NCBI GenBank assembly: GCA_046760105.1 | Contig: JBHIDJ010000003.1 | Coordinates: 19,718-83,717, forward strand | Direction: 5' to 3' | DNA: 64,000 bases | From: Acidiferrobacterales bacterium | Lineage (GTDB): Bacteria; Pseudomonadota; Gammaproteobacteria; Acidiferrobacterales; SPGG2 | Shown: one piece after another, positions 15,496 to 64,000 of the stretch | Position numbering within the stretch: the stretch's first letter is position 1 | Layout: every line of letters starts with the position of its first letter | The notes under the pieces: generated by a model | What the model saw: only the letters and a program-made list of their open reading frames with translations | The model's database searches: none | Told to the model about the DNA's origin: nothing | Translations under genes and position numbers: made by a program

Positions 15496-15534
15496 TTAGA
15501 ATGGACGTCGGACGCGCGATACGCTTGACATTTG

Positions 15535-47566: not shown

Positions 47567-47572
47567 GGGATT

Positions 47573-47589: not shown

Positions 47590-47629
47590 TTTACGGTACC
47601 CACCAGCAACGAGATGGGAAGATTTGTAG

Positions 47630-47673: not shown

Positions 47674-47974
47674 ATAATCAAAGAGTTACACTCACCCTCG
47701 CGGTAGCAGGTCGTGGCGAATCACCAATGAGTCACCACAGGGGCGGCTGTTCAACCGCGTCGGAGAGGCAGACCGAGCAAACATGTAGTCGAGCTGTGAT
47801 CAAGGCTTTTAAATTTTCACAATCTCCCCTCCGTATTGGTACGCCTTCGCCCGGCGCAAGCGGGAATTACGATACGGAAGATCGCAACACCCGTCGCAGT
47901 GCACTCCTTGGGTTAGTCGGCCCGCAAGTAACTCACGCCCCTGCTGAGTGCCGGCATGCCCCGAAGTCGTCAGG

Positions 47975-48838: not shown

Positions 48839-49241
48839 TGGGAACCGTATTTCCCATTGTTCACGGCGCCATACGGCGCCAGTTTATCCTGAAGCCGGCC
48901 GCAATAGTTGCCAGGGGGCGGCCACATCCCGACTCAGGACGCGCTGAGCGGTAGGCCTGTCGGCGGGCCTCAGAGCTGTTTTGAAATTCTGAGTGACCCC
49001 TGTGCCGAACATAGAGACAACAACGAGGCTATTGTCAAATTATACGCCGAAAGACCGTCCCAGCCCGAATTGACATTTCACCAAATTAGTCGAATCCTTT
49101 GTTCTTTACGGCGAGGTAAGAGGTAATATACGGTGCCGTACTCAGAACGCACTATAAAGACATAAACGAGCTACTCTCAACGAGTCCCGTGCCGTTCAAA
49201 TCAGAGGGCACCGCCCCGCGACCTCTGGCGAGGAGACAACT

Positions 49242-50891
49242 ATGAGCGAGCGTAAAGAGCACGCGTATATTCGGGTGCTCAGGAGACAGCTTGCCGAAGG
49301 AAAGATCGACCGTCGCGAGTTTCTGCGCACCGTAACCCTTCTCGGCTTATCCGCGAGCGCCGCCTATGCTTTTGCCGGCAAGGCAAAAGCTGAGACCAAG
49401 CCGGCTATGCCCAAGGGCGGCATCCTTCGGATAAGCATGCCCGTTAGGAAAATCGAAGACCCGCACACCTTCAGCTCGCTTTCGGACAGCAACGTCGTCC
49501 GACAGGTCACCGAATATCTGACCAAAACCGGCCACGACAACATTACGCGTCCGTACCTTCTGCAATCATGGAAGCCCAGCGAGGATCTAAAGACCTGGAC
49601 GCTGCACTTACGCCGGGGCATCAAATGGCACAATGGCCGCGACTTCACGGCTGACGATGTCATCTGGAACCTCAAGCACGTGCTCGATGACAAAACAGGC
49701 TCATCGGTCCTGGGCCTTATGAAGGGCTATATGCTCGAGGAAGACGGCGAGGGAAAAACCCGGCTGTGGGATGCGAACGCGATCGAGAAGGTCGATTCGT
49801 TCACCATCCGGCTGAACTGCAAAGTACCCCAGCTAGCGGTGCCCGAGCATCTGTTCCACTACCCGCTGCTCATTCTCGACCCTGAAGAAGGCGGGGTCTT
49901 CGGACCCGGCTCCAGCGGCACGGGTGCGTTCGAGCTGGTCGAACATGAGGTCGGCAAGCTCTCGGTGCTCAAAGCCCGTAAGGACTACTGGGGCGACGGA
50001 CCGCATCTGGACACCCTCGAATTCATCGACCTGGGCGGTGACCCACAAACGGAGGTTTCCGCCTTCCGCACGAAAAAGGTCGATGGCGCAGACTCCATTG
50101 ACGTGGTCGAGTTCGAAGCGCTGAAACTCATGCCGCACCTTAAGAGGTACGACGCGGTAACGGCAGGTACGGGGCTGGCCCGCGGGAAGGTGACTGAGAA
50201 ACCATTCGACGATGCCAGAGTGCGCAAGGCGCTCCGGCTTGCGATCGACCCCCGCCTCACCCAAGAGCTGGTGCGGGGCGTGCTCGGCTCCCCGGCGGAG
50301 CATCATCACGTTTCGCCTATCCACCCCGAATACGCGAAGCTCCCTCCCATGTGGGTTGACAAGAAACGGAACGTCGAGGCTGCCAAGAGACTCCTGGCCG
50401 AGGCGGGCTATTCCAGGGGTATCGACCTAGGGAGGATCGATTGCAGGGCATCACCGGACTGGGAGGCCAGTGCCGCGCAAGCGATCGTCGAGCAGTGGAG
50501 GGATATTGGCGTGCGCTGTGGGGTCAATACGATGCCGGACGCAAAGTACTGGGAAATCTGGGATAAGACCCGGTTGGGCTTCACCGCCTGGTCCCACCGA
50601 CCGCTCGGCATCATGGTGCTGGGTCTCGCCTATCGCTCTGGCGTACCGTGGAACGAATCCTCGTATTCAAACCCCGAATTTGATCGGCTGCTGACCGAGG
50701 CCGAGGGCGAGCCCGATGTTGACAAACGGCGCGAGGTGATGGCCAAGCTCGAAAAAATCATGCAGGAGGATGGCCCCATTGTTCAGCCGTTCTGGCGGAC
50801 TGTGGTGACCTTTATGGACAAGCGGGTGAAGGGCTTCGAAATGCACCCAACCTTCTATATCTTTGGTAACGAGTTGGCCATCGAATCTTAA
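49242..50891 (+). CDS. ABC-transporter family-5 (peptide/nickel/opine type) substrate-binding protein, Tat-exported, orphan
   Basis: 549 aa. Twin-arginine leader DRREFLRTVTLLGLSASAAYAFA, with family-5 SBP-like sequence throughout. No permease or ATPase genes are nearby. Confidence 0.85.
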   Translation: MSERKEHAYIRVLRRQLAEGKIDRREFLRTVTLLGLSASAAYAFAGKAKAETKPAMPKGGILRISMPVRKIEDPHTFSSLSDSNVVRQVTEYLTKTGHDNITRPYLLQSWKPSEDLKTWTLHLRRGIKWHNGRDFTADDVIWNLKHVLDDKTGSSVLGLMKGYMLEEDGEGKTRLWDANAIEKVDSFTIRLNCKVPQLAVPEHLFHYPLLILDPEEGGVFGPGSSGTGAFELVEHEVGKLSVLKARKDYWGDGPHLDTLEFIDLGGDPQTEVSAFRTKKVDGADSIDVVEFEALKLMPHLKRYDAVTAGTGLARGKVTEKPFDDARVRKALRLAIDPRLTQELVRGVLGSPAEHHHVSPIHPEYAKLPPMWVDKKRNVEAAKRLLAEAGYSRGIDLGRIDCRASPDWEASAAQAIVEQWRDIGVRCGVNTMPDAKYWEIWDKTRLGFTAWSHRPLGIMVLGLAYRSGVPWNESSYSNPEFDRLLTEAEGEPDVDKRREVMAKLEKIMQEDGPIVQPFWRTVVTFMDKRVKGFEMHPTFYIFGNELAIES

Positions 50892-51029
50892 GCAGGCGGA
50901 CCAGGGCGCTCAAGAAGCTCACATTCCAGCGTGCATGACGCCCGCTTAGAACCACCTAGAGGACGTTGCCGCAGCGCGCAGTGACCGCCACGCGACCGGG
51001 AGCGGCGGCGATATCAGGAGAGCACTATC

Positions 51030-53291
51030 ATGTTGCGATTGCTTTCGATCCGAGACCGACTCTTCCTTCTGCTGATGCTGCTCGTCGCGTCGCTCGTCTT
51101 CACCAACCTCCTGCTGATCAACCAGACGAGAAACCTCGAGCACTCCATCCGTCAACAGGCGCACAACATCGATCGCATGGTGAAAGTCGATGCAGCGGTC
51201 AAGACCTTCGGCGACCTTAAGTACTGGCTGACTGCCTGGGCACTTAACGTCGACGCCCATGCCGAGAAGCGTGCCAAGGACGCCCGCGACCTCCTAAACG
51301 GACAGCTATCCGAGCTCAAACCGGATCTGCCGGAGGTGGTCGCCGATGTGCCTGGGCAGGCGGCCGATCTGGTGAGCGAGACAAGCGCGGCCGCGGAAGC
51401 GTTCGCGCGTGATAACTATGCCGTTGCCAAGGGCCTGATCCGCAGGGGGCATGGGCATGTTTTGGCGGTTGATGCCAAGCTTTCAACGGTGGTGGGTAGC
51501 CTCCAAGAAAAAGCTCAGAGTGCTGCCGCGAGAGCGTTGCGGGAGACTTCGCAGGATGTTCAAACCGCCTTATGGATCGTCGTGCTGGTGAGCCTCGTGG
51601 CCGCCACCTTGACCTTTCTAATCGTGCGCTCGGTGGTCATGCCGCTGCGACAAGTGGGCGGGGTGATAGGCGCTATGAGCGCTGGCGAGATGGACGTCCC
51701 TCTGCCGCCAGCGAGCCGTGATGAGATCGGGGATATGGTGCAGGTGCTCACCCTGTTCCGGGAGAACGTCGCACGACGCAGGGCAATCGAACAGGACTTG
51801 CGCGAGGTGCTCGATGCCATCGAATACGGCATCCTGTTCATGGATTCGAATTTGCAGATTCGCATCGATAACCGCGCCTACCGCGAAATCTGGGGTATCC
51901 CCGAGAGCTTTCTCGCCCAGAAGCCCCACCTGCGGGAGTTAATGGAGTACAACCGCGAACACGAGATCTACGATGTCCCCGAGGGTGGGTGGGAGAACTA
52001 CGTCGAAGGCCGTATCGACTCCATTCAAAAGGGGAGTATTCCCCCGACGGAGCTGCACCGCGCCGACGGCAAGATAATCCAGTATCAGTGCGTCGCCCTT
52101 CCAGACGGCGGTCGGATGCTCACGTATTTCGACATTACCGAGATCAAGCGCGCCGAGCAGGCGCTGCGCGAGAGCGAGGAGCGTTACGCCCTGGCGATGA
52201 TGGGCGCCAATGAAGGGCTGTGGGACTGGGACTCGCGCGCCAATGAGATTTACGTCTCCCCGCGCTTCAAGACGATCTTCGGGATGGAGACGGAGGCCCT
52301 CAAAATCACGCCAGCCGACTGGGAGGCCTGCATCCATCCGGATGACCGTGCCCACTACCGCCAGGCATTTCAGGCGCACTTGCGCGGTGACACCGAGTTC
52401 TACCAATCCGAATGCCGCGTGCTGTTGCCCGATGGAGCCCAGCGCTGGGTCCGGATGCGCGGCATCGGCCTGCGCGATGAACGCGGCCGGGTATATCGCA
52501 TGGCCGGATCCGTCGGCGATATCACTGCGGGCAAGCAAGCTGAAATCGAGCTACGCCAAGCCAAGGATGAGGCCATGCAAGCGAGCAACGCCAAAACCCA
52601 GTTCCTCGCCAACATGAGCCATGAGCTGCGCACACCTCTGAACGCCATCTTGGGTTATACGGAGCTGATCCTGGACCAGGTATACGGCGAGGTGCCCGAC
52701 CAGACCCGGGATGTTCTCGAGCGCGTGGAGCAGAGCGGCCGCCACCTACTTGGGCTCATCAACGACGTTCTCGACCTCTCCAAGATCGAGGCAGGTCGCT
52801 TCACGCTGCCCCTCGCCGACTATTCCATGCAGGAGGTGGTCGGGAACGTCATTAGCACAGTCGAATCATTGGGGGCGGAAAAAAATCTGGCCCTGAACGT
52901 TTCGCTTCCACCTGATCTGCCTATCGGAAGGGGGAACGAACAACGCATCACCCAGGTCCTGCTGAATCTCATCGGGAACGCAATCAAGTTTACTGACGTC
53001 GGGGAGGTTTCAGTAGAGGTAACGGTATCCGACGAAAACTTTGTCGTTTCCGTGTCCGACACCGGGATCGGCATATCGGAAGCGGATCAAGCGGAGATTT
53101 TCAAAGAATTTCAGCAGGCGGACAATTCCGTCACACGCGAACGTGGGGGCACAGGCCTCGGTCTCGCCATCGCCAGGCGCATGATCGAAATACAGGGGGG
53201 GCGCGTGTGGGTTCAGTCGACCCGGGGCAAGGGTTCGACCTTTTCGTTCTCACTGCCCATCCGGGTCGAGCCACAGCCGGAGGCGACATGA
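51030..53291 (+). CDS. Sensor histidine kinase (2 TM + periplasmic helical domain, HAMP, 2x PAS, HisKA, HATPase_c)
   Basis: H-box FLANMSHELRTPLNAILGYTE, N-box LLNLIGNAIKFT, G-boxes DTGIGI and GGTGLGLAI. Two PAS-like blocks occupy aa ~270-520. Confidence 0.9.
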   Translation: MLRLLSIRDRLFLLLMLLVASLVFTNLLLINQTRNLEHSIRQQAHNIDRMVKVDAAVKTFGDLKYWLTAWALNVDAHAEKRAKDARDLLNGQLSELKPDLPEVVADVPGQAADLVSETSAAAEAFARDNYAVAKGLIRRGHGHVLAVDAKLSTVVGSLQEKAQSAAARALRETSQDVQTALWIVVLVSLVAATLTFLIVRSVVMPLRQVGGVIGAMSAGEMDVPLPPASRDEIGDMVQVLTLFRENVARRRAIEQDLREVLDAIEYGILFMDSNLQIRIDNRAYREIWGIPESFLAQKPHLRELMEYNREHEIYDVPEGGWENYVEGRIDSIQKGSIPPTELHRADGKIIQYQCVALPDGGRMLTYFDITEIKRAEQALRESEERYALAMMGANEGLWDWDSRANEIYVSPRFKTIFGMETEALKITPADWEACIHPDDRAHYRQAFQAHLRGDTEFYQSECRVLLPDGAQRWVRMRGIGLRDERGRVYRMAGSVGDITAGKQAEIELRQAKDEAMQASNAKTQFLANMSHELRTPLNAILGYTELILDQVYGEVPDQTRDVLERVEQSGRHLLGLINDVLDLSKIEAGRFTLPLADYSMQEVVGNVISTVESLGAEKNLALNVSLPPDLPIGRGNEQRITQVLLNLIGNAIKFTDVGEVSVEVTVSDENFVVSVSDTGIGISEADQAEIFKEFQQADNSVTRERGGTGLGLAIARRMIEIQGGRVWVQSTRGKGSTFSFSLPIRVEPQPEAT

Positions 53292-53653
53292 ACGGGCGGA
53301 TTCTGGTAGTCGAGGATCAAGAGGATAACCGTAAGATCATGCGCGACCTGCTGACCAACGCCGACTACGAAGTGATCGAAGCGGTGACCGGCGACGAGGG
53401 GGTGGCCATGGCGCAAACCCACGTTCCCGACGTCATCCTCATGGACATAAACCTCCCCGGGCTCGATGGATACGAAGCGACGCGCCAGATCAAAGCCAAT
53501 CCCGCGCTCCACCACATTCCGATCATCGCAGTCACCTCCTACGCGCTAAGCGGCGACGAGGCAAAGGCCCGGGAGGCCGGCTGCGACGCCTATTTCAGCA
53601 AACCGGTCAGCCCGCGCGCGCTCCTGGCCAAGGTGCGCGAGTACACCGGATAA
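53288..53653 (+). CDS. Single-domain response regulator (CheY-like)
   Basis: MNGRILVVEDQEDN..., ILMDINLPGLDG, AVTSYA, FSKP. The ATG at 53288 overlaps the kinase stop as ATGA. Confidence 0.88.
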   Translation: MNGRILVVEDQEDNRKIMRDLLTNADYEVIEAVTGDEGVAMAQTHVPDVILMDINLPGLDGYEATRQIKANPALHHIPIIAVTSYALSGDEAKAREAGCDAYFSKPVSPRALLAKVREYTG

Positions 53654-53672
53654 GCGCCCCGAGGAGCAAATT

Positions 53673-54842
53673 GTGAGAACGCCACCGCAGATCCTCATCG
53701 TGGACGACAACCCGACGAACGTGGATATCCTTCAGGCACGCCTCACCGTGCACGGCTATGACATTCTCACGGCGAGCGACGGCGAGCAAGCTGTAAGCAT
53801 CGCCAGAGAAAGGCAGCCAGATCTCATTTTGTTGGATGTCATGATGCCAAAAATGGATGGCATCGAGGTCTGTCGACACCTCAAAGGCGATCCCTCGCTG
53901 CCGTTTATGCCGATTATCCTGGTCACAGCTAAGTCGGATTCGAAGGACGTGGTCGCCGGTCTGGAGGCGGGTGCCGAGGAGTATCTGACCAAGCCCGTAG
54001 ACCAACAGGCGCTCGTGGCAAGGGTCAAGTCGATGTTGAAGATTAAGGACCTCCACGATACGACCCAAGAGCAGGCGGCCCAGCTCTCGCAGTGGAACCG
54101 GACGCTCGAGGAGCGCGTCAAGGAGCAACTCGCAGAGCTGGAGCGCATGAGCCAGCTGAAGCGATTCTTCTCTCCGCATCTCGCGAAGCTCATCGTGTCC
54201 TCCGGAGACAAGAGCTTCCTCAAAAGCCACCGACAGGATATCACCGTGCTCTTCTGTGACCTCCGCGGGTACACGACATTCGCGACGAGCGCCGAGCCCG
54301 AAGAGGAAATCCAGCTGCTGGACGAGTACCACAAGGTCGTCGGTTCCTTGGTATTCGGCTTCGAGGCAACCCTGGAGCACTACGCCGGGGATGGGATCAT
54401 GGCGTTCTTCAACGACCCGATACCCTGTCCTTCTCCGGCGGTGCGCGCCATCCGGATGGCATTGGCGATGCAACGGGAGGTCGGCGAGTTGCTCGAGGGG
54501 TGGCGGAAACGCGGCTTCGACTTGGGGTTCGGCGTGGGGATTGCCATGGGGTACGCCACGTTGGGACAGATCGGTTTCGAAGGCCAATTTCACTACGCCG
54601 CCGTCGGCTCTGTGTCTAACCTTGCGGCGCGCCTTTGCGACAAGGCCCAAAGCGGGCAGATCCTGATCTCCCAGCGGGTCTACGCGGAACTCGAGGGGCT
54701 GGCAGAGGCTGAACCGGTCGGAGAGCTCGCTCTCAAGGGATTCGAGAAGCCCTTACCCGCCTATAACGTGCTCGCAATAAAGGCCGATGAATCTCCTCAC
54801 GAGGAAACTCAGTCTCCGGGGTCGAGCGACGGGAGGCGGTGA
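53673..54842 (+). CDS. Response regulator with a class III adenylate/guanylate cyclase output domain
   Basis: REC (ILIVDDNPTN, ILLDVMMPKMDG, VTAKS, LTKP), a coiled-coil linker, then CYCc (ITVLFCDLRGYTTFA..., GDGIMAFFNDP, GIAMGYATLGQIGF..., NLAARL). Confidence 0.88.
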   Translation: MRTPPQILIVDDNPTNVDILQARLTVHGYDILTASDGEQAVSIARERQPDLILLDVMMPKMDGIEVCRHLKGDPSLPFMPIILVTAKSDSKDVVAGLEAGAEEYLTKPVDQQALVARVKSMLKIKDLHDTTQEQAAQLSQWNRTLEERVKEQLAELERMSQLKRFFSPHLAKLIVSSGDKSFLKSHRQDITVLFCDLRGYTTFATSAEPEEEIQLLDEYHKVVGSLVFGFEATLEHYAGDGIMAFFNDPIPCPSPAVRAIRMALAMQREVGELLEGWRKRGFDLGFGVGIAMGYATLGQIGFEGQFHYAAVGSVSNLAARLCDKAQSGQILISQRVYAELEGLAEAEPVGELALKGFEKPLPAYNVLAIKADESPHEETQSPGSSDGRR

Positions 54843-55107
54843 CGCGTGCATTCGGCCCTTGCGGATAACAGACAGATATCATGTATTGACCTACCCGTTC
54901 TCAAGCGACGTGAGTTAGGTCGGCCGTAAGCAATGGGATGGACTCCTCCTCACCTCAACGGCATCTAGGTGCCAGACTATATCGGCTTCATCCACATAGG
55001 ACCATGTTCCACATCGTTGAATCACGGTTAGCCTTGCCCAATTGAGACAAGAGGGGCAGTCGGTTTGTAGGTCGGCCTAGGAGATCGCGTCACATAAGGA
55101 TCATTCC

Positions 55108-56340
55108 GTGCAAAGCAGCCTTCAACAGCATCCCGTCCTCGTTCTGGGTGCCTTCTTCCCAGCTCTTGGGGTTGTCCACTCCTTGGCGCCCAAGGGCGCC
55201 ACATGCTGGATCTGCGATTCACGCCGAAACGTTGCTGGTTGGTCCCGTCACGCGCACTACCGGTGCATACCCGATCCCCGACTCGACGACCGGAGAATGA
55301 TCGATCGGCTGCTTGCACTCGCGCGCACGGTCGGAGGTAAGCCGATCCTGGTGCCCACGGACGATCATTTTGCGCAAGTGCTTGCCCGCCATCGGGTTGA
55401 ATTGGAAGAGGCCGCGATCCCATGCGTCGCACCGAGTGAAGCTGTCGAGCTGCTTGTCGATCAACAGCGGTTCTGTGAATGGGGGCAAGCGAACGATGTC
55501 AGCTGTCCAAAAGCTGTCCGGGTCAGCGAAGCCCTCGGCTCGCTTGCTCTGCCCTTTGTTGCGAAGCCCATCAACAAGTCGTCCTTCGAAGTGACTGCGC
55601 GCAAGCTCCCACGTGGTCAACAGGCGAGCGACTTGCGTTTCAAGTTCATCCGCAGCGCGGAGGAATGGCAGGTTTACAAAGATGAAATCTGCCCCAATCT
55701 CGAGCATATTCTGGTCCAGGAGTTCATCGAGGGTACGACCACCGATATGTACTCGATCGGCGTCTACGCCGATCGGCAATCCTGCATCAAGGGGCTCTTC
55801 GTTGGTCGGAAGCTTCGCGGTTACCCTGCCTTGTACGGGAACACGAAACTTGGACAGAACGACCGCGTTCCCAACGATGTGTTGGACGAAGTGACGCGCA
55901 TCGTCCGAGAACTTGCCTACACCGGCATCGCTGAGTTCGAATATAGGCGGGAACCCACGACCGGCCACTTTCGCCTTATCGAGATCAATCCGAGATGCTG
56001 GAGCTGGATCGGTGCCACCGCTGTGTCCAAGGCCGACATTCCTTGGATCGCCTTTCAGGATTTGACCGGCGCGAAACTAGGCGGCGTTATCCAAAATGGC
56101 TCCCCAGGATCGATCAAATACGTGCAGATCATGTCGGACTTCGCAAACGTGTTCTTGCGCTACCGCTGGGATTATCCTGCTTGGCTCATGGGGCCGCGGG
56201 CCTGGTGGAACAGTCTCAAAGCTGAAAAGTTAGTGATTGCGGAATTCGACCGGGGTGACTGGCCTGTCGCGCTTTTCTACTTCGCATTGGTCTTACAGAA
56301 TGCCGCCATACTTCTTATTAGGCGACTAAGGAAGCGTTGA
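55108..56340 (+). CDS. ATP-grasp domain protein (COG3919-like predicted carboxylate-amine ligase)
   Basis: 410 aa, GTG start with AAGGA upstream. Pre-ATP-grasp Rossmann-like N-terminus (VLVLGAFFPALGVVHSLAPKG), a central LVQEFIEG motif and EFEYRREPTTGHFRLIEINPR, typical of ATP-grasp C-lobes. Confidence 0.7.
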   Translation: MQSSLQQHPVLVLGAFFPALGVVHSLAPKGATCWICDSRRNVAGWSRHAHYRCIPDPRLDDRRMIDRLLALARTVGGKPILVPTDDHFAQVLARHRVELEEAAIPCVAPSEAVELLVDQQRFCEWGQANDVSCPKAVRVSEALGSLALPFVAKPINKSSFEVTARKLPRGQQASDLRFKFIRSAEEWQVYKDEICPNLEHILVQEFIEGTTTDMYSIGVYADRQSCIKGLFVGRKLRGYPALYGNTKLGQNDRVPNDVLDEVTRIVRELAYTGIAEFEYRREPTTGHFRLIEINPRCWSWIGATAVSKADIPWIAFQDLTGAKLGGVIQNGSPGSIKYVQIMSDFANVFLRYRWDYPAWLMGPRAWWNSLKAEKLVIAEFDRGDWPVALFYFALVLQNAAILLIRRLRKR

Positions 56341-56443
56341 TTCCTGGACCGGCTCCGCTCACGGTCCAACTGTTGATTGCGCAGCTGCAGACGGCGGTCG
56401 CAACGCTGATTAATACCTTTGATGACTCACAGGAGGAACGAAG

Positions 56444-56818
56444 ATGCGGGTTGTGCGAAAGGACTTTTCGGACCTTTTGAAGCTGTTCATATTGGCGATC
56501 TGTGCATGGGGTTTACCTGAACGCCATTGGTCCGGCGTTTGCCGCAGGCTCACCAAGGCAGAGTTGTGGAAGAACAAGAAAAGGACTGAGACTGCTGTCC
56601 ACCGAATTCGAACCGCATGCGACGGTCGGGCCATACCCCTCAGCCCGGAAGACGTGGAGCTCGAACGCGCGGCGGCGCATTACCTGGATCGCCTTCAGAT
56701 CTTCGCCGATTATCGCCCCCGCGGCTGGTCTCCAGAGATCGAGTTACACGGGCGAGAGCATCTGGATGAGGCCCTCGCCCAGGGCCGGGGCGCAATCCTC
56801 TGGGCGCTGCACGGATGA
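56444..56818 (+). pseudogene. Possible truncated lysophospholipid/lipid-A acyltransferase (LPLAT, LpxL-like) N-terminal fragment
   Basis: The 124-aa ORF (AGGAGG Shine-Dalgarno) ends ...IELHGREHLDEALAQGRGAILWALHG*, exactly where LpxL/LPLAT proteins carry the H(x)4D catalytic block. No continuation appears in any frame downstream. It could instead be an intact small protein. Confidence 0.4.
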
Positions 56819-57098
56819 ACCCCAGTGCGGTTGGTCTAAACAAACGGATTCTAAGCTTGCCATTCTGAACAGACGTCTCTGTGGCATTAATAACGGCCGA
56901 CCTAAAAAAGTCGTGCAAGACAGTCCTCGCTCGCTCGCTTAGGCCATCCGCCCTCCGCGGCGGCGATGCGGGACAGGAAATACCATAGTGCTCCAGGTGA
57001 GCCGCTGCCCAGCGAGCTCTCTTTGACCTAACGCACACAAATACCCCTTTGAGGCCGCTCGAAGCAGCATCTTGCCTGTTGCCTGCTGTTGTATAGGG

Positions 57099-57115
57099 TT
57101 GTGAATTTTTCACAA
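57099..57115. promoter_or_regulatory. Perfect 17-bp palindrome, CRP-like operator candidate (TGTGA-N5-TCACA)
   Basis: TTGTGAATTTTTCACAA, followed 5 nt later by an extra half-site TTGTGAA (57121..57127). A TATAGT -10-like hexamer lies at 57159..57164. Confidence 0.5.
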
Positions 57116-57187
57116 ATTGTTTGTGAAAACCTCCCTGGAGTACTGATGCTCACCGCAATATAGTGAGGATCGCCATCGGGCTCGTGG

Positions 57188-57204
57188 GCGTGAATTTCTC
57201 ACAA
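57188..57204. promoter_or_regulatory. CRP-like operator candidate (CGTGA-N5-TCACA)
   Basis: GCGTGAATTTCTCACAA lies 89 bp downstream of the perfect palindrome, in the same ~700-bp non-coding stretch upstream of the second Sel1 gene. Confidence 0.4.
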
Positions 57205-57512
57205 TTTCTGATGGCAACGCTACATAGAGCGAGCAACCAGGAGTCTAGTAAGGTGACAAGCATCCAAACATTTAGCGGGTTATCCGGGCGAGGGCTCGCG
57301 CTGCAGACGCGAGGCTTATCCGCTGCGGCACCCACAGTGACTATGAACAGAAGGAATGACGAGACGATACAAGAGTACGAACGCCCGATACCTGGGGTAA
57401 CTGGTAGGGACGTTTTTTGTGCATGGATTGTAGTCGCTACATTTCTGCTCGGGTTGCTTGTGTTGTCCGTGGTTTAACGAGAACCCGAAAAATAGCAAGA
57501 GAGAATTCGCGA

Positions 57513-57938
57513 ATGCGGTTGACCAAACTCATAGCCTCGCTATTTGTCAGAGGTGGGCAAACGCTCCACATGCGAACTTATAAGGAAGGATTGGCCGCCT
57601 ATAAGTCTGGGCACTATAGCGCGGCAGTAGCTAGTCTAAGGCCGTATGCTAAGAAGGGCGATGCACTGGCGCAGCTGACGCTTGGCAACATGTACAAGAA
57701 AGGTCTTGGGGTGCCGAAGGACCTCGATCAAGCGGCGCATTGGTACCGCAAAGCGGCGACTCAGGGGGATCCTGACGCGAAGTTTAATCTGGGAATCATG
57801 TACATCAGGGGGGACGGTGTAACCGGCGACAAAGGTCAAGCGTTAAACTGGCTGAAGGACGCGGCAGAACAGGGCCACAGACAAGCCAGGCTCGCTTATG
57901 AATACATCACGAGGCAAGAGTACCAGAACGTCTGTTGA
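57513..57938 (+). CDS. Sel1-like repeat protein (short)
   Basis: About three Sel1 repeats (AQLTLGNMYKKGLGVPKDLDQAAHWYRKAATQGDPDAKFNLGIMYIRGDGV...). I prefer the ATG at 57513 over the longer track ORF from 57417. Confidence 0.8.
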   Translation: MRLTKLIASLFVRGGQTLHMRTYKEGLAAYKSGHYSAAVASLRPYAKKGDALAQLTLGNMYKKGLGVPKDLDQAAHWYRKAATQGDPDAKFNLGIMYIRGDGVTGDKGQALNWLKDAAEQGHRQARLAYEYITRQEYQNVC

Positions 57939-57981
57939 CCGGCGATCGCAGCAAAGGTCAGCATTGATGCGCACGCACTGA

Positions 57982-58278
57982 CGCAAACTTCAGTTTCGCA
58001 TCGGCATCGACCTGAGGGATGTCATCGTCGATCGACACCACATTTATGGCGACGGCGTCAATGTGACAGTGCGCTTTCAAAGTCTGGCTGAGCCGGGTGG
58101 CATTTGTCTCTCCCAAACGGCGCACGAAGCCATCAGCAACAAACTACCGCTTACCTACGAATTCATAGGCGAGCAATCCGCGAAGAACATTAGCAAGCTG
58201 CTACCGGCCTTGCGTGTCAGGATGGAACCGGGCTACCAGCCAACCGATATCCCTGCCCTCATATCCCAACTAGTGTGA
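57982..58278 (+). pseudogene. 3' fragment of a class III adenylate/guanylate cyclase gene
   Basis: The frame reads, straight after a TGA at 57979: RKLQFRIGIDLRDVIVDRHHIYGDGVNVTVRFQSLAEPGGICLSQTAHEAISNKL..FIGEQSAKNISKLLPALRV. This matches the C-terminal half of CYCc domains (RIGIh.G.v....d.yGdgVN.AARLesLAepGgI.iS). The N-terminal half is absent and AARLES has degenerated to TVRFQS. Confidence 0.6.
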
Positions 58279-58289
58279 ATACTTCACAG
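58273..58289. promoter_or_regulatory. CRP-like operator candidate (TGTGA-N5-TCACA; 15-bp perfect core)
   Basis: GTGTGAATACTTCACAG lies 213 nt upstream of the ATG at 58502. Confidence 0.5.
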
Positions 58290-58501
58290 TCGCCGCGCCT
58301 AACCGATCACAGCGATCGGATGGTGACTTGGATACAGTGCACGCTACAAGACGGCCTTACACAGGCACTTGTATTGGCGGAGATCCGCGCTAGCTAGAGT
58401 CCGAGTCGTAGCTCATGCAGGTGGCACTCCGCAAGCCAGGCGTCGACCTGGATCTACGAGTTAGAGTTAACCGCGAAAATACTTCAGAAAGGAGAGTCAA
58501 A

Positions 58502-59161
58502 ATGGTAGCAACGTCTGAGAAGTTTGAAGAGCTTGAAAAGCTTAATGAGGTAGAAGCGTTACGCGAGCAGGAACACGAGGGAGAGGTTCCTGAAGTAGAG
58601 GATGGGGAACAGGGTGACGAGTCTCCACAGTTTTTTGAGGAACATGGAACGTTTCCTGAATTAGAATACGGAAGGCACGGGGGCTGGCCTGGCAAGTACC
58701 GAAAATTTGGAAAGTGTAAGTTTGAAGTCGGGCTTCCCCACTACCCGCCCCTCACGGGTGCCATAAGAGCGGAAGTCTACGAGAATGGTAAACCCTCAAA
58801 TTGCATCATCCGCGCAGACAAGGAGTGGTCTGTTCGAGTTCATTGGTATCTGAAGGGTGCACTGCAAGACTGTATCTGCGGATATTGGTGTCTCAATTTG
58901 TTCATGGAGTCCATCGGCCCGGGACCTGAGCTTGTGATCCCCTATCATAAACTCATTCCGCTGAGGCCCTGCGGAAATGGCCATTATTGGTACGAGATCA
59001 AGGTTCCGGCAGGCTTCATCACCCCGAAGCACTGCTCGATCCCTTACCAGCTGGTCGCTGGCGTCACTTATCGTACGCCTTGCAAGAAGCCGGGCCCGAT
59101 ATCGGGGTTCTGCAAGCTGCCAATGATTCAATTTTATGAATCCAGCAAGAGATTTACATAA
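58502..59161 (+). CDS. Hypothetical protein: acidic N-terminal region plus Cys/aromatic-rich C-terminal domain
   Basis: The ATG at 58502 is preceded by AAAGGAGAG. The first ~50 aa are Glu-rich (EKFEELEKLNEVEALREQEHEGEVPEVEDGEQGDE). The rest holds about 11 Cys (GKCKFEV, QDCICGYWCLN, RPCGNGHYWY, KHCSIPY, TPCKKPGPISGFCK). No family recognised. GC content is visibly lower than in neighbouring genes. Confidence 0.6.
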   Translation: MVATSEKFEELEKLNEVEALREQEHEGEVPEVEDGEQGDESPQFFEEHGTFPELEYGRHGGWPGKYRKFGKCKFEVGLPHYPPLTGAIRAEVYENGKPSNCIIRADKEWSVRVHWYLKGALQDCICGYWCLNLFMESIGPGPELVIPYHKLIPLRPCGNGHYWYEIKVPAGFITPKHCSIPYQLVAGVTYRTPCKKPGPISGFCKLPMIQFYESSKRFT

Positions 59162-59832
59162 GCACTAGTGTCACACGTTTATTGACCTCCTGGCCCTGGC
59201 GGTGCATCTATTGCGCTGCCAGGGTCAGCGTCTTAGGGCAATTTGCCAGGGGAAGAACCGGTCGCCCATGATACGAGCGCATGGATGCCGGTCAACGTAA
59301 TCCTAGCTTGGCTGCAACACAACCTGCTTGTTTTGCGACAGCTCGCGTTTCACGCGCTACTTCGTAGAGAACCAGGAGAGCGACATGCTGCTTACCATAA
59401 AGACTAATCAAATCGGTCTAGTGTCACACGATCGTCCTTATCGCAGGGCAAGTATACGCGAACTATGCCGAGAGCGAGATTAAACACAGAGAGCTATGAG
59501 GTCACGGATGCCTATGGGGGCTGTGCTTAAAGGCAGACTTTCTGACCAAATTGGAGGCCGGAAGCCAACTGGTGACAAGAATACTTTCCGTATCGGGCGG
59601 GAGGAGAATGACTCAAATTCGATTGGTGATGAGGCGTAGGGACGGCACGGAGAGAAAGCCAGTGTGACCCGGGGGGAGTGCTGTAGTCTCCTTGCTCCAT
59701 GAGGGGTAAGATTGGTGGAGGTACACGAAGCAGAAACCGAATACCGAGGAGGCAGCGGATCGAGCGCCGAGCTACGGGTCTGTTAGCTCTCGGAGACCGG
59801 ACTCTTTGACCGCTGCGCAAAGGAGGGGAACT

Positions 59833-61206
59833 ATGGGAGGCATAAAGGTCCAGAACTGGAAACGCGCGATTACATACTACGCCAAGGTTGTGGAGGTGGT
59901 GCACAGCGTCGACGACATCGTCCGGATCGTCAAGGACAAGCAGCGGTATCCCTCCCCCGTCCGAGTGAAGGGATCCCATCACTCCACCACCCGCTGCATC
60001 GTGGCAGAGGACGGCACGGTCATCGACATCACCAAGATGAACCAGATCCTCGACATCGACGAGAAGGCGAAGACCATTACGATGCAGGCGGGTGTGTTCC
60101 ACATCGACGCCGCCCGTGAGCTGGAGAAGCACAATTTGCAATTCTACGTGAACGTGGAGATAGGCAACCTCACGGTGGGCAGCGGCGCCTGTGGGGCTAC
60201 TAAGGACGCTTCGTATTTTTCCGAGGAGTTGGGGAAATACGAGTTCGGTCAGGTTGCTTCCTACGTGGTGGGATTGAAGGCGGTGCTCCCCAGTGGGGAG
60301 ATCCTAGAGGTCACCGAGGACCAAGGGGAGCTGTTGGAGGTGATGCGTTCGAGCTACGGGATGCTCGGGATCATCTTCGAGGTCACCTACAAGGTCAAAG
60401 AGATCAAACCTATGGCGGTGGAGCACGTCTCCTACCATGTCGATGAATTCGCCGACCGGCTCGATGAGCTGATCGGTGGGAACCGATCGATGATGCTCTA
60501 CCTCTTCCCCTTCCTCGACCGTGTGGTGGTCGAATACCGTTACGACGGGAGTGGCCCAATCACCTCGAACAGTTGGCAGTGGCGGCTCCGGAACTGGGTC
60601 TGGAAGACGGCGGGCCCTGCCTTCGGGAAGACCGTAACCACGTTCATACCCTTCAAGGGGATTCGATACTGGCTGATAGACCGCTTCAACCAGCTTACCC
60701 AGGCGCTCATGCCCTGGGTGCTGCGGGGCTGTCACACCAGTCCCGTCGATCAGATCATCCGCTACCCGGAGACCGCAGGCTACGCGTCCTACACCTTCAG
60801 CATCTGGGCTTTCCCACGGGAGGAGTACCCTCAGACCATCCGAGCCTACTACCGGTTCTGCAAGGATTACTACAAGGAGAACGGTTACCGTTGTGATCTG
60901 TTAAACGTGGGCTACAACATCGCAAAGGACACAAGCTCTCTCTTTTCTTACACCAGCAAGGGCCCGGCACTCACCCTCGACCCAGTCTCCACCGCCTCGA
61001 AAGGCTGGTTCGCGTTCCTGACCGCCTATAACGAGTTCTGCATCCAGCACAACGGGACCCCCTTGTTCAACCAGACCCCGAGGATCACACCGCTCCAAGC
61101 CAAGGCGGCCTTCGGCCCGGAGATCGAGAAGTTCCAAGAGTACCGCCGAAAGTACGACCCCGAAGACCGGTTCTACATCGAGTATTTCCGGAAGCGGTTC
61201 GAGTAG
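59833..61206 (+). CDS. FAD-linked oxidase (PCMH-type FAD-binding domain; aldonolactone-oxidase-like)
   Basis: VQNWKRAI...VVEVVHSVDDIVRIVKD......VRVKGSHHS...IDITKMNQILDID...ITMQAGV fits the FAD_binding_4 N-terminus. The C-terminus ends ...YRRKYDPEDRFYIEYF, like ALO/GULO-type oxidases. An AAAGGAGGGG Shine-Dalgarno precedes the ATG at 59833. Confidence 0.85.
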   Translation: MGGIKVQNWKRAITYYAKVVEVVHSVDDIVRIVKDKQRYPSPVRVKGSHHSTTRCIVAEDGTVIDITKMNQILDIDEKAKTITMQAGVFHIDAARELEKHNLQFYVNVEIGNLTVGSGACGATKDASYFSEELGKYEFGQVASYVVGLKAVLPSGEILEVTEDQGELLEVMRSSYGMLGIIFEVTYKVKEIKPMAVEHVSYHVDEFADRLDELIGGNRSMMLYLFPFLDRVVVEYRYDGSGPITSNSWQWRLRNWVWKTAGPAFGKTVTTFIPFKGIRYWLIDRFNQLTQALMPWVLRGCHTSPVDQIIRYPETAGYASYTFSIWAFPREEYPQTIRAYYRFCKDYYKENGYRCDLLNVGYNIAKDTSSLFSYTSKGPALTLDPVSTASKGWFAFLTAYNEFCIQHNGTPLFNQTPRITPLQAKAAFGPEIEKFQEYRRKYDPEDRFYIEYFRKRFE

Positions 61207-61211
61207 CAGCT

Positions 61212-62078
61212 CGGGCGGTCTAGAAAGAGTGGCAGCAATGCGCTACCAGCACTACAAATCGCTCAGGTGGTTCCGCATTACTGTCGGGCTTGGTTTCGTG
61301 GGCAACATGATCTTCGTGCTACCCGCCCTCTTCGCTCCCCGGTACCTGGAGACACTGATTGAGGTCGGGACGACCAACACACTCCACTGGCTGCAGAACG
61401 TCGGGATCCTGCTGCTGATCATCACGATCATGTACATCCCGGCGATCAAGGATCCTTTCCGCTACCTCTTCATCTCGTACCTGCTCGTGGCAGGTCGATT
61501 TTCTGCTGGACTACTCTTCTTGCTGGGAGTTCTGTTCATGAACTACCCCTCAGGTATGTTGGTCCTTTCGGGCAGCGATCTCATCCTATCAAGCATCCAA
61601 GCTGTCCTTCTCTACTTCATGCTCCGGGACGGGGATCCCCGGGCGGTCTAGAAAGAGTGGCAGCAATGCGCTACCAGCACTACAAATCGCTCAGGTGGTT
61701 CCGCATTACTGTCGGGCTTGGTTTCGTGGGCAACATGATCTTCGTGCTACCCGCCCTCTTCGCTCCCCGGTACCTGGAGACACTGATTGAGGTCGGGACG
61801 ACCAACACACTCCACTGGCTGCAGAACGTCGGGATCCTGCTGCTGATCATCACGATCATGTACATCCCGGCGATCAAGGATCCTTTCCGCTACCTCTTCA
61901 TCTCGTACCTGCTCGTGGCAGGTCGATTTTCTGCTGGACTACTCTTCTTGCTGGGAGTTCTGTTCATGAACTACCCCTCAGGTATGTTGGTCCTTTCGGG
62001 CAGCGATCTCATCCTATCAAGCATCCAAGCTGTCCTTCTCTACTTCATGCTCCGGGACGGGGATCCCCGGGCGGTCTA
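61212..62078 (+). repeat. Perfect tandem duplication: 2 x 428 bp plus an 11-bp third-copy stub
   Basis: Unit 61212..61639 equals 61640..62067, judged from identical sense and antisense ORF translations at a 428-nt offset. All three junctions share CGGGCGGTCTA (61212, 61640, 62068). Confidence 0.9.
61229..61651 (+). CDS. Small 4-TM membrane protein, copy 1
   Basis: ~137-140 aa with four hydrophobic helices (ITVGLGFVGNMIFVLPALFA, VGILLLIITIMYIPAI, LFISYLLVAGRFSAGLLFLLGVLF, LVLSGSDLILSSIQAVLLYFML). The start is the GTG at 61229 or the ATG at 61238. No family recognised. Confidence 0.65.
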   Translation: MAAMRYQHYKSLRWFRITVGLGFVGNMIFVLPALFAPRYLETLIEVGTTNTLHWLQNVGILLLIITIMYIPAIKDPFRYLFISYLLVAGRFSAGLLFLLGVLFMNYPSGMLVLSGSDLILSSIQAVLLYFMLRDGDPRAV

Positions 62079-62082
62079 CTGA
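61657..62082 (+). CDS. Small 4-TM membrane protein, copy 2 (identical except for one extra C-terminal Tyr)
   Basis: Same sequence as copy 1. It ends ...DPRAVY* because the duplication junction changes the stop context. Confidence 0.65.
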   Translation: MAAMRYQHYKSLRWFRITVGLGFVGNMIFVLPALFAPRYLETLIEVGTTNTLHWLQNVGILLLIITIMYIPAIKDPFRYLFISYLLVAGRFSAGLLFLLGVLFMNYPSGMLVLSGSDLILSSIQAVLLYFMLRDGDPRAVY

Positions 62083-62108
62083 CGCCTGCCCGCAACGGAA
62101 GGCCGAAC

Positions 62109-63689
62109 ATGGAAACCTTCGACCGACTCACGCCTCAGGAGAGCCGCCTTCACGGCCGGCGCTTTCGCCTTGCCTGCGGAATCGCGGTCATCGGCATCTT
62201 GGGGTTGCTGGCCTTTTTCAATGCTTTCGCCTCTAACCGTCCTGTCGACTACGAGAGCGATGAGGACCACTTCTACTACGGCTCCATCGGCTCCGATATC
62301 TCCGGGGGTTTGCCCCTCAAGGTGATGCAGGTTCTCCCGGCGATGTTCCCCGAGTACCTTCCGACGGGGGCCGAGCGACACGACTACACGGTCTTCGGAT
62401 TCATTCAGGAGCCTGGGGCGAAGATGCCCATCGGCTTCTCCATCCGCCAACAGTTTATCGACCTCACCTCGATCAACTGCGGGGTTTGCCACACCGGCTC
62501 CGTGCGCGAGACCGTCGACAGCGAGCCTGTGATCATTCCGGCCATGCCGGCGAACACCATGGACTTACTCGCCTTTTTCGAGTTCCTCTTCGACTGCGCC
62601 GGGGACCAACGGTTCAACAGCGAGGAGATCCTCGCCGCAATGGAGAAGGCCGATATCTCTGGGCCCCTTGACGGTCTGATCTACCGTTTCGTGATCCCAC
62701 GCATGAAGGAGGGGCTGCTCGCGCGGTCCAAGAAGATCAGCTTCCTGTTCGAGCCGGATTACCCCCGTTTCGGGCCGGGCAGGGTCAACACCTTCGACAC
62801 CTTCAAGTACGATCAGTTCGCATATTACTACCAGGCCCACGGCCAGGAGATCGACCCGGACGAAATCTACGGCACGGTGGCCCTCCCGTCGATCTGGAAT
62901 CAAGCCGCCCGGGAGGGTCTGAAGCTCCATTGGGACGGAAACAACTCTTCCGTCCGGGAACGGAATTTCAGCGCCGCCATCGGCGCAGGCGCTAAGCCGC
63001 AGGACATGGACATCGAGCGAATGTTTCGGATCGAGAGATGGCTCGCCACCCTTCCTCCACCCGCCTACCCCTTTTCCATCGACGAGAAGAAGGCGAAGCA
63101 GGGCGAGGCTATCTACAAAAAGTACTGCCTCGATTGCCACGACTTCACGGGGAAGCAGGTGGGACAGGTCTTCCCGCTCGCGAAGATCGGCACGGACCGT
63201 CACCGTCTGGATTCTTACACGCAGTTTCTGCTGGAAGCCCAGCAGGACTACACCGAGGGTTATTTCTGGTCCTTCACCCACTTCACCAAGACCCACGGCT
63301 ACGCAAGCCAGCCCCTTGATGGCATCTGGGCCCGGGCGCCTTACCTGCACAACGGCTCGGTTCCCACGATGTGGGATCTCCTGACCCCTGCCGAGGAGCG
63401 TCCCCAGGCGTTCACCATCGGCGGAGACGTCTACGACCAGGAGAAGATGGGGTTCGTGCACGAGGCGCTGACCGGTTCTCCAGAATCCGGCTACATCCGC
63501 AACGACGGGAGCTCTTACACAGGGACGGCCTTCGTGCTCGATACGAACCTTCGGTCGAACAGCAGCCAGGGCCACACGGGGCCTGCCTACGGCACGGAGC
63601 TCAGCGACGACCAGAAGCGAGCCCTGATCGAGTATTTCAAGTGGCAGGACCGCCCTAGTGGGCGTCCCGTACAAACCTCAGGAGAGTAG
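62109..63689 (+). CDS. Membrane-anchored di-haem c-type cytochrome (CCP/MauG/RoxA-like oxidoreductase superfamily)
   Basis: N-terminal TM anchor (ACGIAVIGILGLLAFF). Two CxxCH haem motifs (SINCGVCHTG and KKYCLDCHDF). LHWDGNNSSVRERNFSAAIGAG and APYLHNGSVPTMWDLL blocks are typical of this uncharacterised di-haem family, from memory. Confidence 0.8.
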   Translation: METFDRLTPQESRLHGRRFRLACGIAVIGILGLLAFFNAFASNRPVDYESDEDHFYYGSIGSDISGGLPLKVMQVLPAMFPEYLPTGAERHDYTVFGFIQEPGAKMPIGFSIRQQFIDLTSINCGVCHTGSVRETVDSEPVIIPAMPANTMDLLAFFEFLFDCAGDQRFNSEEILAAMEKADISGPLDGLIYRFVIPRMKEGLLARSKKISFLFEPDYPRFGPGRVNTFDTFKYDQFAYYYQAHGQEIDPDEIYGTVALPSIWNQAAREGLKLHWDGNNSSVRERNFSAAIGAGAKPQDMDIERMFRIERWLATLPPPAYPFSIDEKKAKQGEAIYKKYCLDCHDFTGKQVGQVFPLAKIGTDRHRLDSYTQFLLEAQQDYTEGYFWSFTHFTKTHGYASQPLDGIWARAPYLHNGSVPTMWDLLTPAEERPQAFTIGGDVYDQEKMGFVHEALTGSPESGYIRNDGSSYTGTAFVLDTNLRSNSSQGHTGPAYGTELSDDQKRALIEYFKWQDRPSGRPVQTSGE

Positions 63690-63757
63690 TCAACTCAGGC
63701 GTCCCAGGTTAAAGGGCGAGCAGGGCTGTGGATGCTGCAGCTCTTTGGAGAAGGTCA

Positions 63758-64000
63758 ATGTATAAGATCCTTTTGTGCCACCGCCGGAAGAAAGGGCTCG
63801 GGTACGGCAAGTTCCACAATCACTGGATGGAACCGCGCAGCCGTCTGGTCCTTGACCTTCACGCGAAGCTGGGCTACAGCCGGTATGCACAGCTACACCA
63901 GGTCCGCCGGATAAACTTGCTCTACCAAGGGATCCGATTCACTCGGAGCCCGGTGGTCACCGCTTTGCTTTCCGTGATTCAGGGCAAAAAGGTACCTAAG
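63758..64000 (+). CDS. EthD-like protein, N-terminal 81 codons; the gene runs off the right edge
   Basis: Hand translation from the ATG at 63758 (GGAGAAGG Shine-Dalgarno) gives MYKILLCHRRKKGLGYGKFHNHWMEPRSRLVLDLHAKLGYSRYAQLHQ..., which fits the EthD pattern (M.K...L.KRK.G.s.eeF..hW...H..l.....g..rY.Q.H). It is absent from the track because it has no stop. Confidence 0.45.
   Translation, partial: MYKILLCHRRKKGLGYGKFHNHWMEPRSRLVLDLHAKLGYSRYAQLHQVRRINLLYQGIRFTRSPVVTALLSVIQGKKVPK

Follow-up and report, generated by a model that had tools for sequence, protein, structure and literature searches.

Organization of the locus

The window analysed here (the whole 64,000 bp stretch of a metagenome-assembled genome, or MAG, of an Acidiferrobacterales bacterium) ends in a run of co-oriented genes for a flavoenzyme, a small membrane protein present in two copies, a RoxA-like di-haem c-type protein and the beginning of a predicted double-EthD protein; these four kinds of gene are conserved together in other bacteria and are called the module below. 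"TM4" is a working name for the small four-helix membrane protein of this module. The genes, and the repeat features in the TM4 region, are as follows (aa, amino acids; ORF, open reading frame).

59833..61206, + strand: flavoenzyme (VAO/PCMH, aldonolactone-oxidase branch), 457 aa from an ATG behind AGGAGG; the longest ORF, from TTG 59806, is 466 aa
61229..61651 from GTG (140 aa) or 61238..61651 from ATG (137 aa), + strand: TM4 copy 1 (P0122, ACE5NW_01720)
61657..62082 from GTG (141 aa) or 61666..62082 from ATG (138 aa), + strand: TM4 copy 2 (P0121, ACE5NW_01725)
62109..63689, + strand: RoxA-like di-haem c-type protein, 526 aa, with matches to Pfam PF21419 and NCBIfam NF040606
63758..64000, + strand: predicted double-EthD protein, first 81 codons, cut by the window edge; orthologues are 273-283 aa
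61212..62078, unstranded: exact tandem duplication, unit 61212-61639 = 61640-62067, 428 bp, 100% identical
62068-62078, unstranded: 11-nt partial third copy CGGGCGGTCTA, the microhomology at the duplication junction
Sequence expected across the copy-to-copy junction: GATCCCCGGGCGGTCTAGAAAGAG; GATCCCCGGGCGGTCTAGAAAGAGTGGC

The four or five co-oriented genes with short gaps that an initial annotation of this DNA had described are reproduced in the ORF listing, where (with the longest starts) gaps of 22, 5, 26 and 68 nt separate the flavoenzyme, the two TM4 ORFs, the di-haem ORF and the EthD ORF in turn. That annotation also considered the genes compositionally distinct, with strongly C- and G-ending codons. 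When G+C at third codon positions (GC3) is computed for each gene against the 46 other ORFs of the window (mean 0.645, sd 0.059, maximum 0.767), the excess proves to be real: GC3 is 0.814 for the flavoenzyme, 0.759 and 0.754 for the TM4 copies and 0.812 for the di-haem gene (z = 2.9, 1.9, 1.8 and 2.8, respectively), and it is 0.74 for the EthD fragment. C-ending codons carry this excess (0.47 versus 0.33 elsewhere in the window). The distinctness is thus confined to third codon positions (GC3 0.75-0.81) and does not extend to total G+C, which at 0.56-0.61 in the module genes is ordinary for the window.

The flavoenzyme matches Pfam FAD_binding_4 (71.2 bits, cutoff 26.4) and contains a GSHHS motif, which bears out its first description as an aldonolactone-oxidase-like FAD enzyme, with the qualification that the Pfam ALO match lies slightly below its cutoff (22.7 versus 23.1 bits). 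It shares the FAD_binding_4 fold and an ALO-like cap domain with L-galactono-1,4-lactone dehydrogenase (GLDH), GULO/ALO, AldO/xylitol oxidase and DprE1, but it differs from GLDH, GULO/ALO and DprE1 in falling below every family-specific cutoff; it scores 84.3 bits on TIGR01678 (cutoff 396.8), 37.1 on TIGR01676 (GLDH; cutoff 458) and 56.7 on the DprE1 model (cutoff 500). Since the lactone oxidase, GLDH and DprE1 scores are all so far below their cutoffs, substrate specificity is not transferable to the window enzyme. Among solved structures, GLDH 8qmy and xylitol oxidase 2vfr come closest to it. When it is aligned with 2vfr, the second GSHHS His falls on the His of "GSGHS", which we take to be the covalent FAD-linking residue of that oxidase, and a covalent His-FAD in the window enzyme is probable. 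Reactivity with O2 is not readable from the position of the GLDH Ala113 "gatekeeper", where the alignment is unreliable. The protein has no signal peptide and starts directly with the FAD-binding fold, and in the independent contig L013, discussed below, the gene is likewise called at 457 aa.

The di-haem protein is identical to P0001, a protein annotated as "cytochrome c [Acidiferrobacterales bacterium]". Its CxxCH motifs are C124/C127/H128 and C340/C343/H344, and it matches Pfam RoxA-like_Cyt-c (PF21419) over residues 397-435 (69.1 bits, cutoff 26.7) and NCBIfam NF040606 (di-heme cytochrome c peroxidase; 181.5 bits, cutoff 150). Its relatives, distant paralogues included, score 151-205 bits on NF040606, so that all of them are peripheral members of that model. 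It does not reach the equivalog cutoffs for RoxA, RoxB and RoxC (55-77 bits, where 900-1000 are required), and none of the models for MauG and bacterial cytochrome c peroxidases (CCP) matched it. Of the earlier description as a membrane-anchored protein with two CxxCH motifs and CCP/MauG/RoxA-like blocks, the anchor, the haem motifs, RoxA-like_Cyt-c and NF040606 therefore stand, and the specific MauG/CCP models do not. RoxA (4b2n) is the one relative whose structure has been solved. Invariance across 26 homologues extends to both CxxCH motifs, H274-W275-D276-G277, H414 (in APYLHNGSVP) and H489; a phmmer alignment places W275 at the inter-haem W302 of RoxA and H489 at its haem-2 sixth ligand H641, in segments that are weak when taken alone, and A290 at A316, a residue of the hydrophobic distal pocket. 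The haem-binding residues are kept and pocket residues have changed, so the haem scaffold is intact while the distal pocket is unlike that of RoxA. Judged by these residues the enzyme looks functional, and it is predicted to have an uncleaved N-terminal helix as its membrane anchor, with the catalytic domain at the periplasmic face. The family is large, with more than 5,500 RoxA-like di-haem homologues and at least 559 metagenomic loci.

Pfam finds no match in the 81-aa EthD fragment alone. The fragment is, in tblastn searches, 41-59% identical to the N-terminal half of the gene that lies directly 3' of the di-haem gene in ten related loci (L001-L006 and L008-L011), and the full-length orthologues (273-283 aa; 55-59% identical over the fragment) each contain two domains of Pfam EthD (PF07110; 41-60 bits, cutoff 22). 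The EthD-like ORF that had been noticed running off the window is thus, as predicted from its orthologues, the start of a cytoplasmic double-EthD (dimeric alpha/beta-barrel) protein.

TM4 and the conservation of the module

TM4, a predicted integral protein of the inner membrane, belongs to no Pfam family; a scan of all TM4 family members at E<=1 gave sub-threshold noise only (Ni_hydr_CYTB and BphX-like). Its AF2 model (pLDDT 83.5) consists of four long helices, and Foldseek found no PDB match for the model at E<0.001, so the profile and structure searches suggested by the initial annotation leave the protein without a described relative in either database. The possibility that it is a cytochrome b561 was considered and rejected. 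Its match to Ni_hydr_CYTB (prokaryotic cytochrome b561) is 17 bits against a cutoff of 30.1, and it has no conserved His haem ligand: its only candidate, H53, gives way to Y, W or Q in homologues, and TM4 is therefore not a b-type cytochrome. Mean column identity in the family is 59%. The invariant residues include polar ones inside the helices (N26, D117, S121 and Q124), R38, E41, N50, W54 and Q56 in the first periplasmic loop, and D75, R78 and Y79 in the cytoplasmic loop.

A profile search of 1.84 billion representative proteins yielded 225 TM4 relatives, some of which are parts of larger proteins. In four (P0281, P0282, P0366 and P0375) TM4 is fused to RoxA-like di-haem domains, in three others (P0334, P0365 and P0398) it is fused N-terminally to full-length animal-haem peroxidase (An_peroxidase) domains, and several relatives, for example P0282, P0289 and P0301, are double-TM4 proteins. 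P0281 has a fifth hydrophobic helix between TM4 and the conserved "HFKYGSIGSD" start of the haem domain, an arrangement that fits a topology in which both TM4 termini would be cytoplasmic and the N-terminal helix of the di-haem protein would be its uncleaved anchor. In Sorangium a peroxidase gene (L012, 8116-9972) whose product shares 49% identity with the peroxidase portion of P0334 lies beside a di-haem-TM4-TM4-di-haem cluster. Nothing else speaks as strongly as these fusions for TM4 and the haem enzyme working as one unit, and adjacency, fusion and conservation together suggest that periplasmic haem oxygenases have in TM4 a dedicated partner in the membrane. The tight linkage of TM4 to the di-haem gene had not been noticed before, and TM4 as the fused or adjacent partner of two haem-oxygenase families is new here.

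The two identical small 4-TM proteins reported at first are the products of the exact 428-bp repeat and differ solely in a final Tyr, which is missing in copy 1 (...DPRAV* versus ...DPRAVY*). The stop codon of copy 1 is supplied by duplicated upstream sequence, and the C-terminus of copy 2 is the ancestral one; the ribosome-binding region is the same for both. From the period of 428 and the 11-nt partial third copy it follows that the ancestral single TM4 gene was flanked by two 11-nt direct repeats, a layout that reads as the signature of slippage or unequal crossing-over. Could the second copy be an artefact of assembly, the genome having only one? Both copies have exactly the same sequence (100% identity), the DNA comes from a MAG, and only one copy is present in all 15 related loci that reach this position and in the closest relative (L104, 86% DNA identity), which has the order FAD, one TM4, di-haem and lacks the microhomology. 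An artefact is nevertheless unlikely. In de Bruijn assembly tandem repeats are as a rule collapsed, not expanded, and the junction has the 11-nt microhomology of a real event. In addition, an independent k=31 assembly of run SRR29324584 contains a contig (Logan contig L013) that is 100% identical to window positions 54938-61241 and ends exactly 30 nt (k-1) into the repeat; this is where the graph must branch if the reads hold a junction of copy end to copy start, and it thus supports the junction. Both copies are also annotated in the deposited Acidiferrobacterales MAG (ACE5NW_01720 and ACE5NW_01725). The duplication is therefore probably real and very recent, and leaves two translatable copies with zero divergence; its nature as a structural event had escaped the initial annotation and is new here. 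Diverged TM4 pairs are present elsewhere (L012, L076, L078 and L086), and the window offers a small, clean natural example of microhomology gene duplication before any divergence.

A genome scan, exact-protein look-ups and a metagenome scan together gave 92 related loci, which were divided into a close set of 18, in which the di-haem protein is at least 59% identical to that of the window, and a distant set of 74. Counts for the close set take only those loci whose contig reaches the position in question. TM4 lies directly upstream of the di-haem gene in 15 of 15 close loci, the double-EthD gene directly downstream in 16 of 16, and an FAD gene is adjacent in 14 of 14 (upstream in 11, inverted downstream in 3); none has more than one TM4 gene. 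The module is thus conserved as four genes (FAD, TM4, di-haem and double-EthD), and this strict conservation is new here. It agrees with the conserved neighbourhood, and with the conserved oxidative gene module, that would be expected if the genes form an oxidative pathway, as had been proposed from the window alone. Beyond the di-haem gene only the rest of the double-EthD gene is constant in relatives, and what follows varies: the closest loci that extend past it (L008 and L009) have a PEMT-like methyltransferase gene, and Halomonas has genes for an 890-aa RoxA-like protein, a GMC oxidoreductase and a 1311-aa protein, the first two of which are also present in several alphaproteobacterial MAGs. 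No Pfam domain is found in the 1311-aa protein, whose gene turns up close to di-haem and GMC genes in several loci, namely L010 (10607-14542), L063, L064, L068, L078 and L083.

The hosts of the close set are Acidobacteriota, Alphaproteobacteria (Rhizomicrobium and others) and Gammaproteobacteria (Halomonas stenophila), besides metagenomes. The di-haem proteins closest to that of this Acidiferrobacterales MAG (62-77% identical) are from Acidobacteriota, Alphaproteobacteria and Halomonas. In L001, L010 and L011 the module is bordered or broken up by remnants of transposase or integrase genes; the Halomonas copies are among those bordered by them. These remnants, the shift in GC3 (the highest in the window) and the presence of relatives in unrelated phyla support horizontal mobility, and the suggestion that the genes were acquired horizontally is probably correct. 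In L001 (an Acidobacteriota MAG; 8171-9205 and 13774-16948) an IS630-type transposase gene (HTH and DDE_3) lies just upstream of TM4, and the FAD gene and a GMC oxidoreductase gene are inverted downstream, giving a rearranged module. In tblastn the FAD gene of L002 (an alphaproteobacterial MAG; 8112-9453) falls into two segments, 8112-8621 and 8617-9453, that overlap and lie in different frames, which suggests a frameshift, a pseudogene or a sequencing error.

The distant set (40-52% identity) is organized differently. Two or more paralogous di-haem genes stand in tandem in 49 of the 74 loci, in layouts such as di-haem-TM4-di-haem or di-haem-di-haem-TM4-TM4; the FAD gene is present in 0 of 74 and the EthD gene never. 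Genes for a GMC oxidoreductase, the 890-aa RoxA-like protein, An_peroxidase and P450 are often nearby, and GMC genes occur in 28 of the 92 loci overall. Since TM4 and di-haem genes occur together in these loci without FAD and EthD, and neighbour each other across the whole family, they form the old core of the module, and the FAD and double-EthD genes are an addition specific to the clade of the window.

Possible function of the module

The reading that we favour, with a probability of roughly 0.55 for the whole of it, is that a conserved, mobile four-gene module acts through TM4 and the di-haem enzyme to oxygenate a lipid or isoprenoid, hydrophobic and probably unsaturated, at the membrane, that the FAD and EthD proteins act in the cytoplasm, and that the Cys-rich protein encoded upstream is unrelated to it. 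TM4 would dock the haem enzyme at the membrane and may present a membrane-soluble substrate through its intrabilayer polar cluster (N26, D117, S121 and Q124). The di-haem enzyme, with O2 or peroxide, would oxygenate this substrate at the outer face of the inner membrane, and the flavoenzyme (alcohol to carbonyl) and the EthD protein would act on the cytoplasmic side, either converting the product further or supplying the precursor.

Lipid or isoprenoid oxygenation is favoured because the only characterised relatives of the di-haem protein, RoxA/RoxB and PA2077/PA2078, carry out their oxygenations outside the cytoplasm, at C=C bonds of hydrophobic substrates; to our knowledge, the rubber oxygenases and these two Pseudomonas aeruginosa oxylipin synthases are the only members of the RoxA-like di-haem family with known functions. 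The neighbours of family members have a lipid theme as well, in that An_peroxidase, P450, GMC oxidoreductase, PEMT-like methyltransferase and patatin genes recur beside them. An_peroxidase and P450 genes both lie beside di-haem-TM4 units in L012 and L056, and these are the enzyme families of fatty-acid dioxygenase/hydroperoxide isomerase cascades. Among the searchable papers none uses the term "RoxA-like", and matches for EthD were only papers on ethidium homodimer.

RoxA and RoxB of Steroidobacter cummioxidans (4b2n) act on polyisoprene. They share with the window protein two CxxCH haems, the RoxA-like_Cyt-c motif GY..PL.G.WA.APY.HNGSVP, the bridging Trp in WDG and the His aligned with the haem-2 sixth ligand (these last two in weak alignment segments), a location outside the cytoplasm and a hydrophobic distal pocket (A290 corresponding to A316). 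They are secreted proteins of about 670 aa, whereas the window protein is membrane-anchored and has 526 aa, an Ile in place of the essential F317 and an invariant His in place of F301. The window module moreover adds TM4, a VAO flavoenzyme and a double-EthD protein, which as far as we know are not part of rubber-degradation loci.

In P. aeruginosa the tandem di-haem pair PA2077/PA2078 ("FadCcp") acts as oleate 10S-dioxygenase and 7,10-diol synthase (PMC4496055), and the oxylipin products are reported to be quorum-sensing signals (PMC6377657). These proteins resemble the window protein in being RoxA-related di-haem enzymes that are periplasmic or face the periplasm (PA2077 is predicted to be membrane-associated), with a lipid as substrate. 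The tandem di-haem pairs of the distant set look like the PA2078-PA2077 operon, whereas the window clade has a single di-haem gene. PA2077 and PA2078 are longer (634 and 624 aa), their CxxCH motifs are 245 and 235 residues apart compared with 216 in the window protein, and no TM4, FAD or EthD partner has been described for them. MauG and the bacterial cytochrome c peroxidases belong to the same di-haem superfamily, have an inter-haem Trp and are periplasmic, but the window protein matches no MauG/CCP model, no periplasmic substrate protein is encoded with the module, and architecture and partners are different. Fungal and cyanobacterial systems in which a haem dioxygenase is combined with a P450 or catalase (linoleate diol synthases, 10S-DOX; PMC13049297) resemble the wider family through the An_peroxidase and P450 neighbours in L012 and L056 and the three TM4-An_peroxidase fusions; their haem enzyme is of a different type, and An_peroxidase and P450 genes are found in 0 of the 18 loci of the window clade.

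Several points weigh against the favoured reading. Similarity to RoxA is limited to the haem core (38 bits), and within it the essential F317 of RoxA aligns with Ile291 and F301 with the invariant H274, so that the chemistry of the di-haem enzyme could differ from that of RoxA, for example towards peroxidase. The comparison with PA2077/PA2078 draws on their published description. The lipid theme is guilt by association in distant paralogous clusters outside the FAD/EthD clade, and the role of TM4 is drawn solely from adjacency, fusion and conservation. Finally, short-read graphs do not resolve the copy number of the TM4 duplication.

The invariant H274 could serve as a distal base, and together with the NCBIfam name "di-heme cytochrome c peroxidase" and the flavin oxidases present in 14 of 14 close loci (with the GMC genes in 28 of 92 overall) it brings to mind an oxidase-peroxidase couple, in which the flavin oxidase, joined in extended clusters by GMC oxidases, makes H2O2 that a CCP/MauG-type di-haem enzyme uses as oxidant or detoxifies. 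The flavoenzymes have no export signals, so H2O2 would arise in the wrong compartment, and such a couple leaves the strict linkage to TM4 and to the double-EthD gene unexplained; we regard it as rather improbable. Quite improbable, too, is a respiratory dehydrogenase complex modelled on the plant pathway from GLDH to cytochrome c, or on the membrane flavoprotein-cytochrome c dehydrogenases, in which the flavoenzyme would oxidise a sugar lactone, a polyol or a comparable compound and pass electrons through the membrane protein to a di-haem cytochrome c. L-Galactono-1,4-lactone dehydrogenases use cytochrome c, and the fact that they are the best solved relatives of the flavoenzyme, the public annotation of the di-haem protein as "cytochrome c" and the weak sub-threshold Ni_hydr_CYTB match of TM4 all speak for such a complex. 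Against it, the flavoenzyme has no signal peptide while the haem c is periplasmic, and TM4 offers no invariant His that could hold haem b for transfer across the membrane. Most of the family has TM4 with the di-haem gene but no FAD gene (0 of 74 distant loci has one), the animal-haem peroxidases to which TM4 is also fused do not carry electrons, and the di-haem protein bears a RoxA-type catalytic core.

A more tentative extension of the favoured reading, oxygenation of a lipid or isoprenoid by TM4 and the di-haem enzyme, can also be considered. TM4 might be a new family of membrane adaptor or substrate-delivery subunits that work as a dimer and have been recruited by two unrelated kinds of haem oxygenase, in a widespread and hitherto undescribed bacterial system that oxygenates membrane lipids or other hydrophobic compounds at the periplasmic face, for oxylipin-like signals or lipid turnover; the window would then hold the zero-divergence first step of a duplication that has matured elsewhere. 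Three findings open the family to experiment: the conserved four-helix partner that accompanies much of it, the fusion of this partner to two haem oxygenase families, and the existence of a clade to which a VAO flavoenzyme and a double-EthD protein have been added. They define a minimal gene set to express and a testable hypothesis, lipid or isoprenoid oxygenation at the membrane. Halomonas stenophila is a named carrier of the module and may offer a cultivable host.

The upstream Cys-rich gene and its surroundings

Two features that precede the module lie outside it.

58502..59161, + strand: Cys-rich protein, 219 aa
58273-58287, unstranded: palindrome TGTGAATACTTCACA, read directly from the sequence

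The Cys-rich protein has an acidic N-terminal tail, with 20 acidic residues in the first 60 (the poly-acidic N-terminus of the initial annotation), followed by a C-terminal domain of about 150 aa; it has nine Cys, rather than the approximately 11 first reported, and five of these are invariant in its family. The family and structure searches that had been proposed for it gave 18 homologues, most of which are the C-terminal domain alone, and an AF2 model in which that domain is a beta-sandwich (core pLDDT 85-93) with weak, generic beta-sandwich matches in the PDB; a Pfam scan of all family members at E<=1 gave nothing consistent. No signal peptide was recognized.

It had been suggested that the di-haem enzyme might act as MauG does in maturation and cross-link or oxidise this Cys/aromatic-rich neighbour. 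The two are encoded next to each other on the same strand in this one genome, and Cys-rich homologues lie near another haem enzyme, An_peroxidase, in L018, L020 and L021. The Cys-rich family is absent from 92 of 92 di-haem loci, and TM4 is found in no Cys-rich locus; by this lack of co-occurrence the idea is already largely refuted. In addition, the protein has no signal peptide while the di-haem domain is periplasmic, its gene has the opposite codon bias (GC3 = 0.56), and the 671-nt spacer between it and the FAD gene is conserved in no relative. A link to the module through An_peroxidase was also considered and rejected, since the An_peroxidases near Cys-rich genes have no BLAST similarity at E<1e-3 to those that are fused to TM4 or adjacent to it. 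Maturation of this kind is thus very improbable indeed, and the Cys-rich protein is an unrelated neighbour, neither a component nor a substrate of the module.

Elsewhere the Cys-rich gene has a different neighbourhood, in the order BTAD regulator, Cys-rich protein, HHH_5 protein (about 280-330 aa), An_peroxidase (450-470 aa). This order is present in L018 (6002-10008), L020 (4510-9066) and L021 (4484-9082) and in part in L022 (1418-5361), often with NB-ARC/TPR or AAA regulators near, and it looks like an undescribed small system. In L016 the Cys-rich gene lies beside a cytochrome b561 gene.

The palindrome TGTGAATACTTCACA, which the initial annotation called CRP-like, is perfect (6+3+6, TGTGA-N5-TCACA), but its spacing is one base short of a CRP site and it lies about 215 nt upstream of the Cys-rich start codon. 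A Crp-family regulator is encoded within the window (46720-47454, minus strand) and could read this palindrome. The sequence CTAGTGTCACAC, which contains the 9-nt palindrome GTGTCACAC, is present twice in the 671-nt spacer (59165-59176 and 59418-59429); it was rejected as a meaningful element, as two or more matches occur in 9 of 100 shuffles. Promoter and terminator scans gave no more sites than in shuffled sequence, and an Rfam scan of 57000-64000 at E<=1 had no match.

The stretch 56340-58500, between an ATP-grasp gene (55108-56340) and the Cys-rich gene, is gene-poor and of lower G+C (about 0.525-0.55), and holds just a Sel1-repeat protein gene (57417-57938) and short ORFs of no family. 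It may be an island junction; no tRNA gene in the window marks a boundary, and no integrase was found for this stretch. Farther upstream, the Crp-family regulator gene is part of a cyclic-nucleotide signalling neighbourhood (44609-54842), which also includes genes for a PAS/HAMP histidine kinase (51030-53291), a receiver protein (53207-53653) and a receiver-adenylate/guanylate cyclase (53673-54842). At its left end (44609-46315) lies an unusual fusion, a serine hydroxymethyltransferase with a C-terminal cNMP-binding domain.

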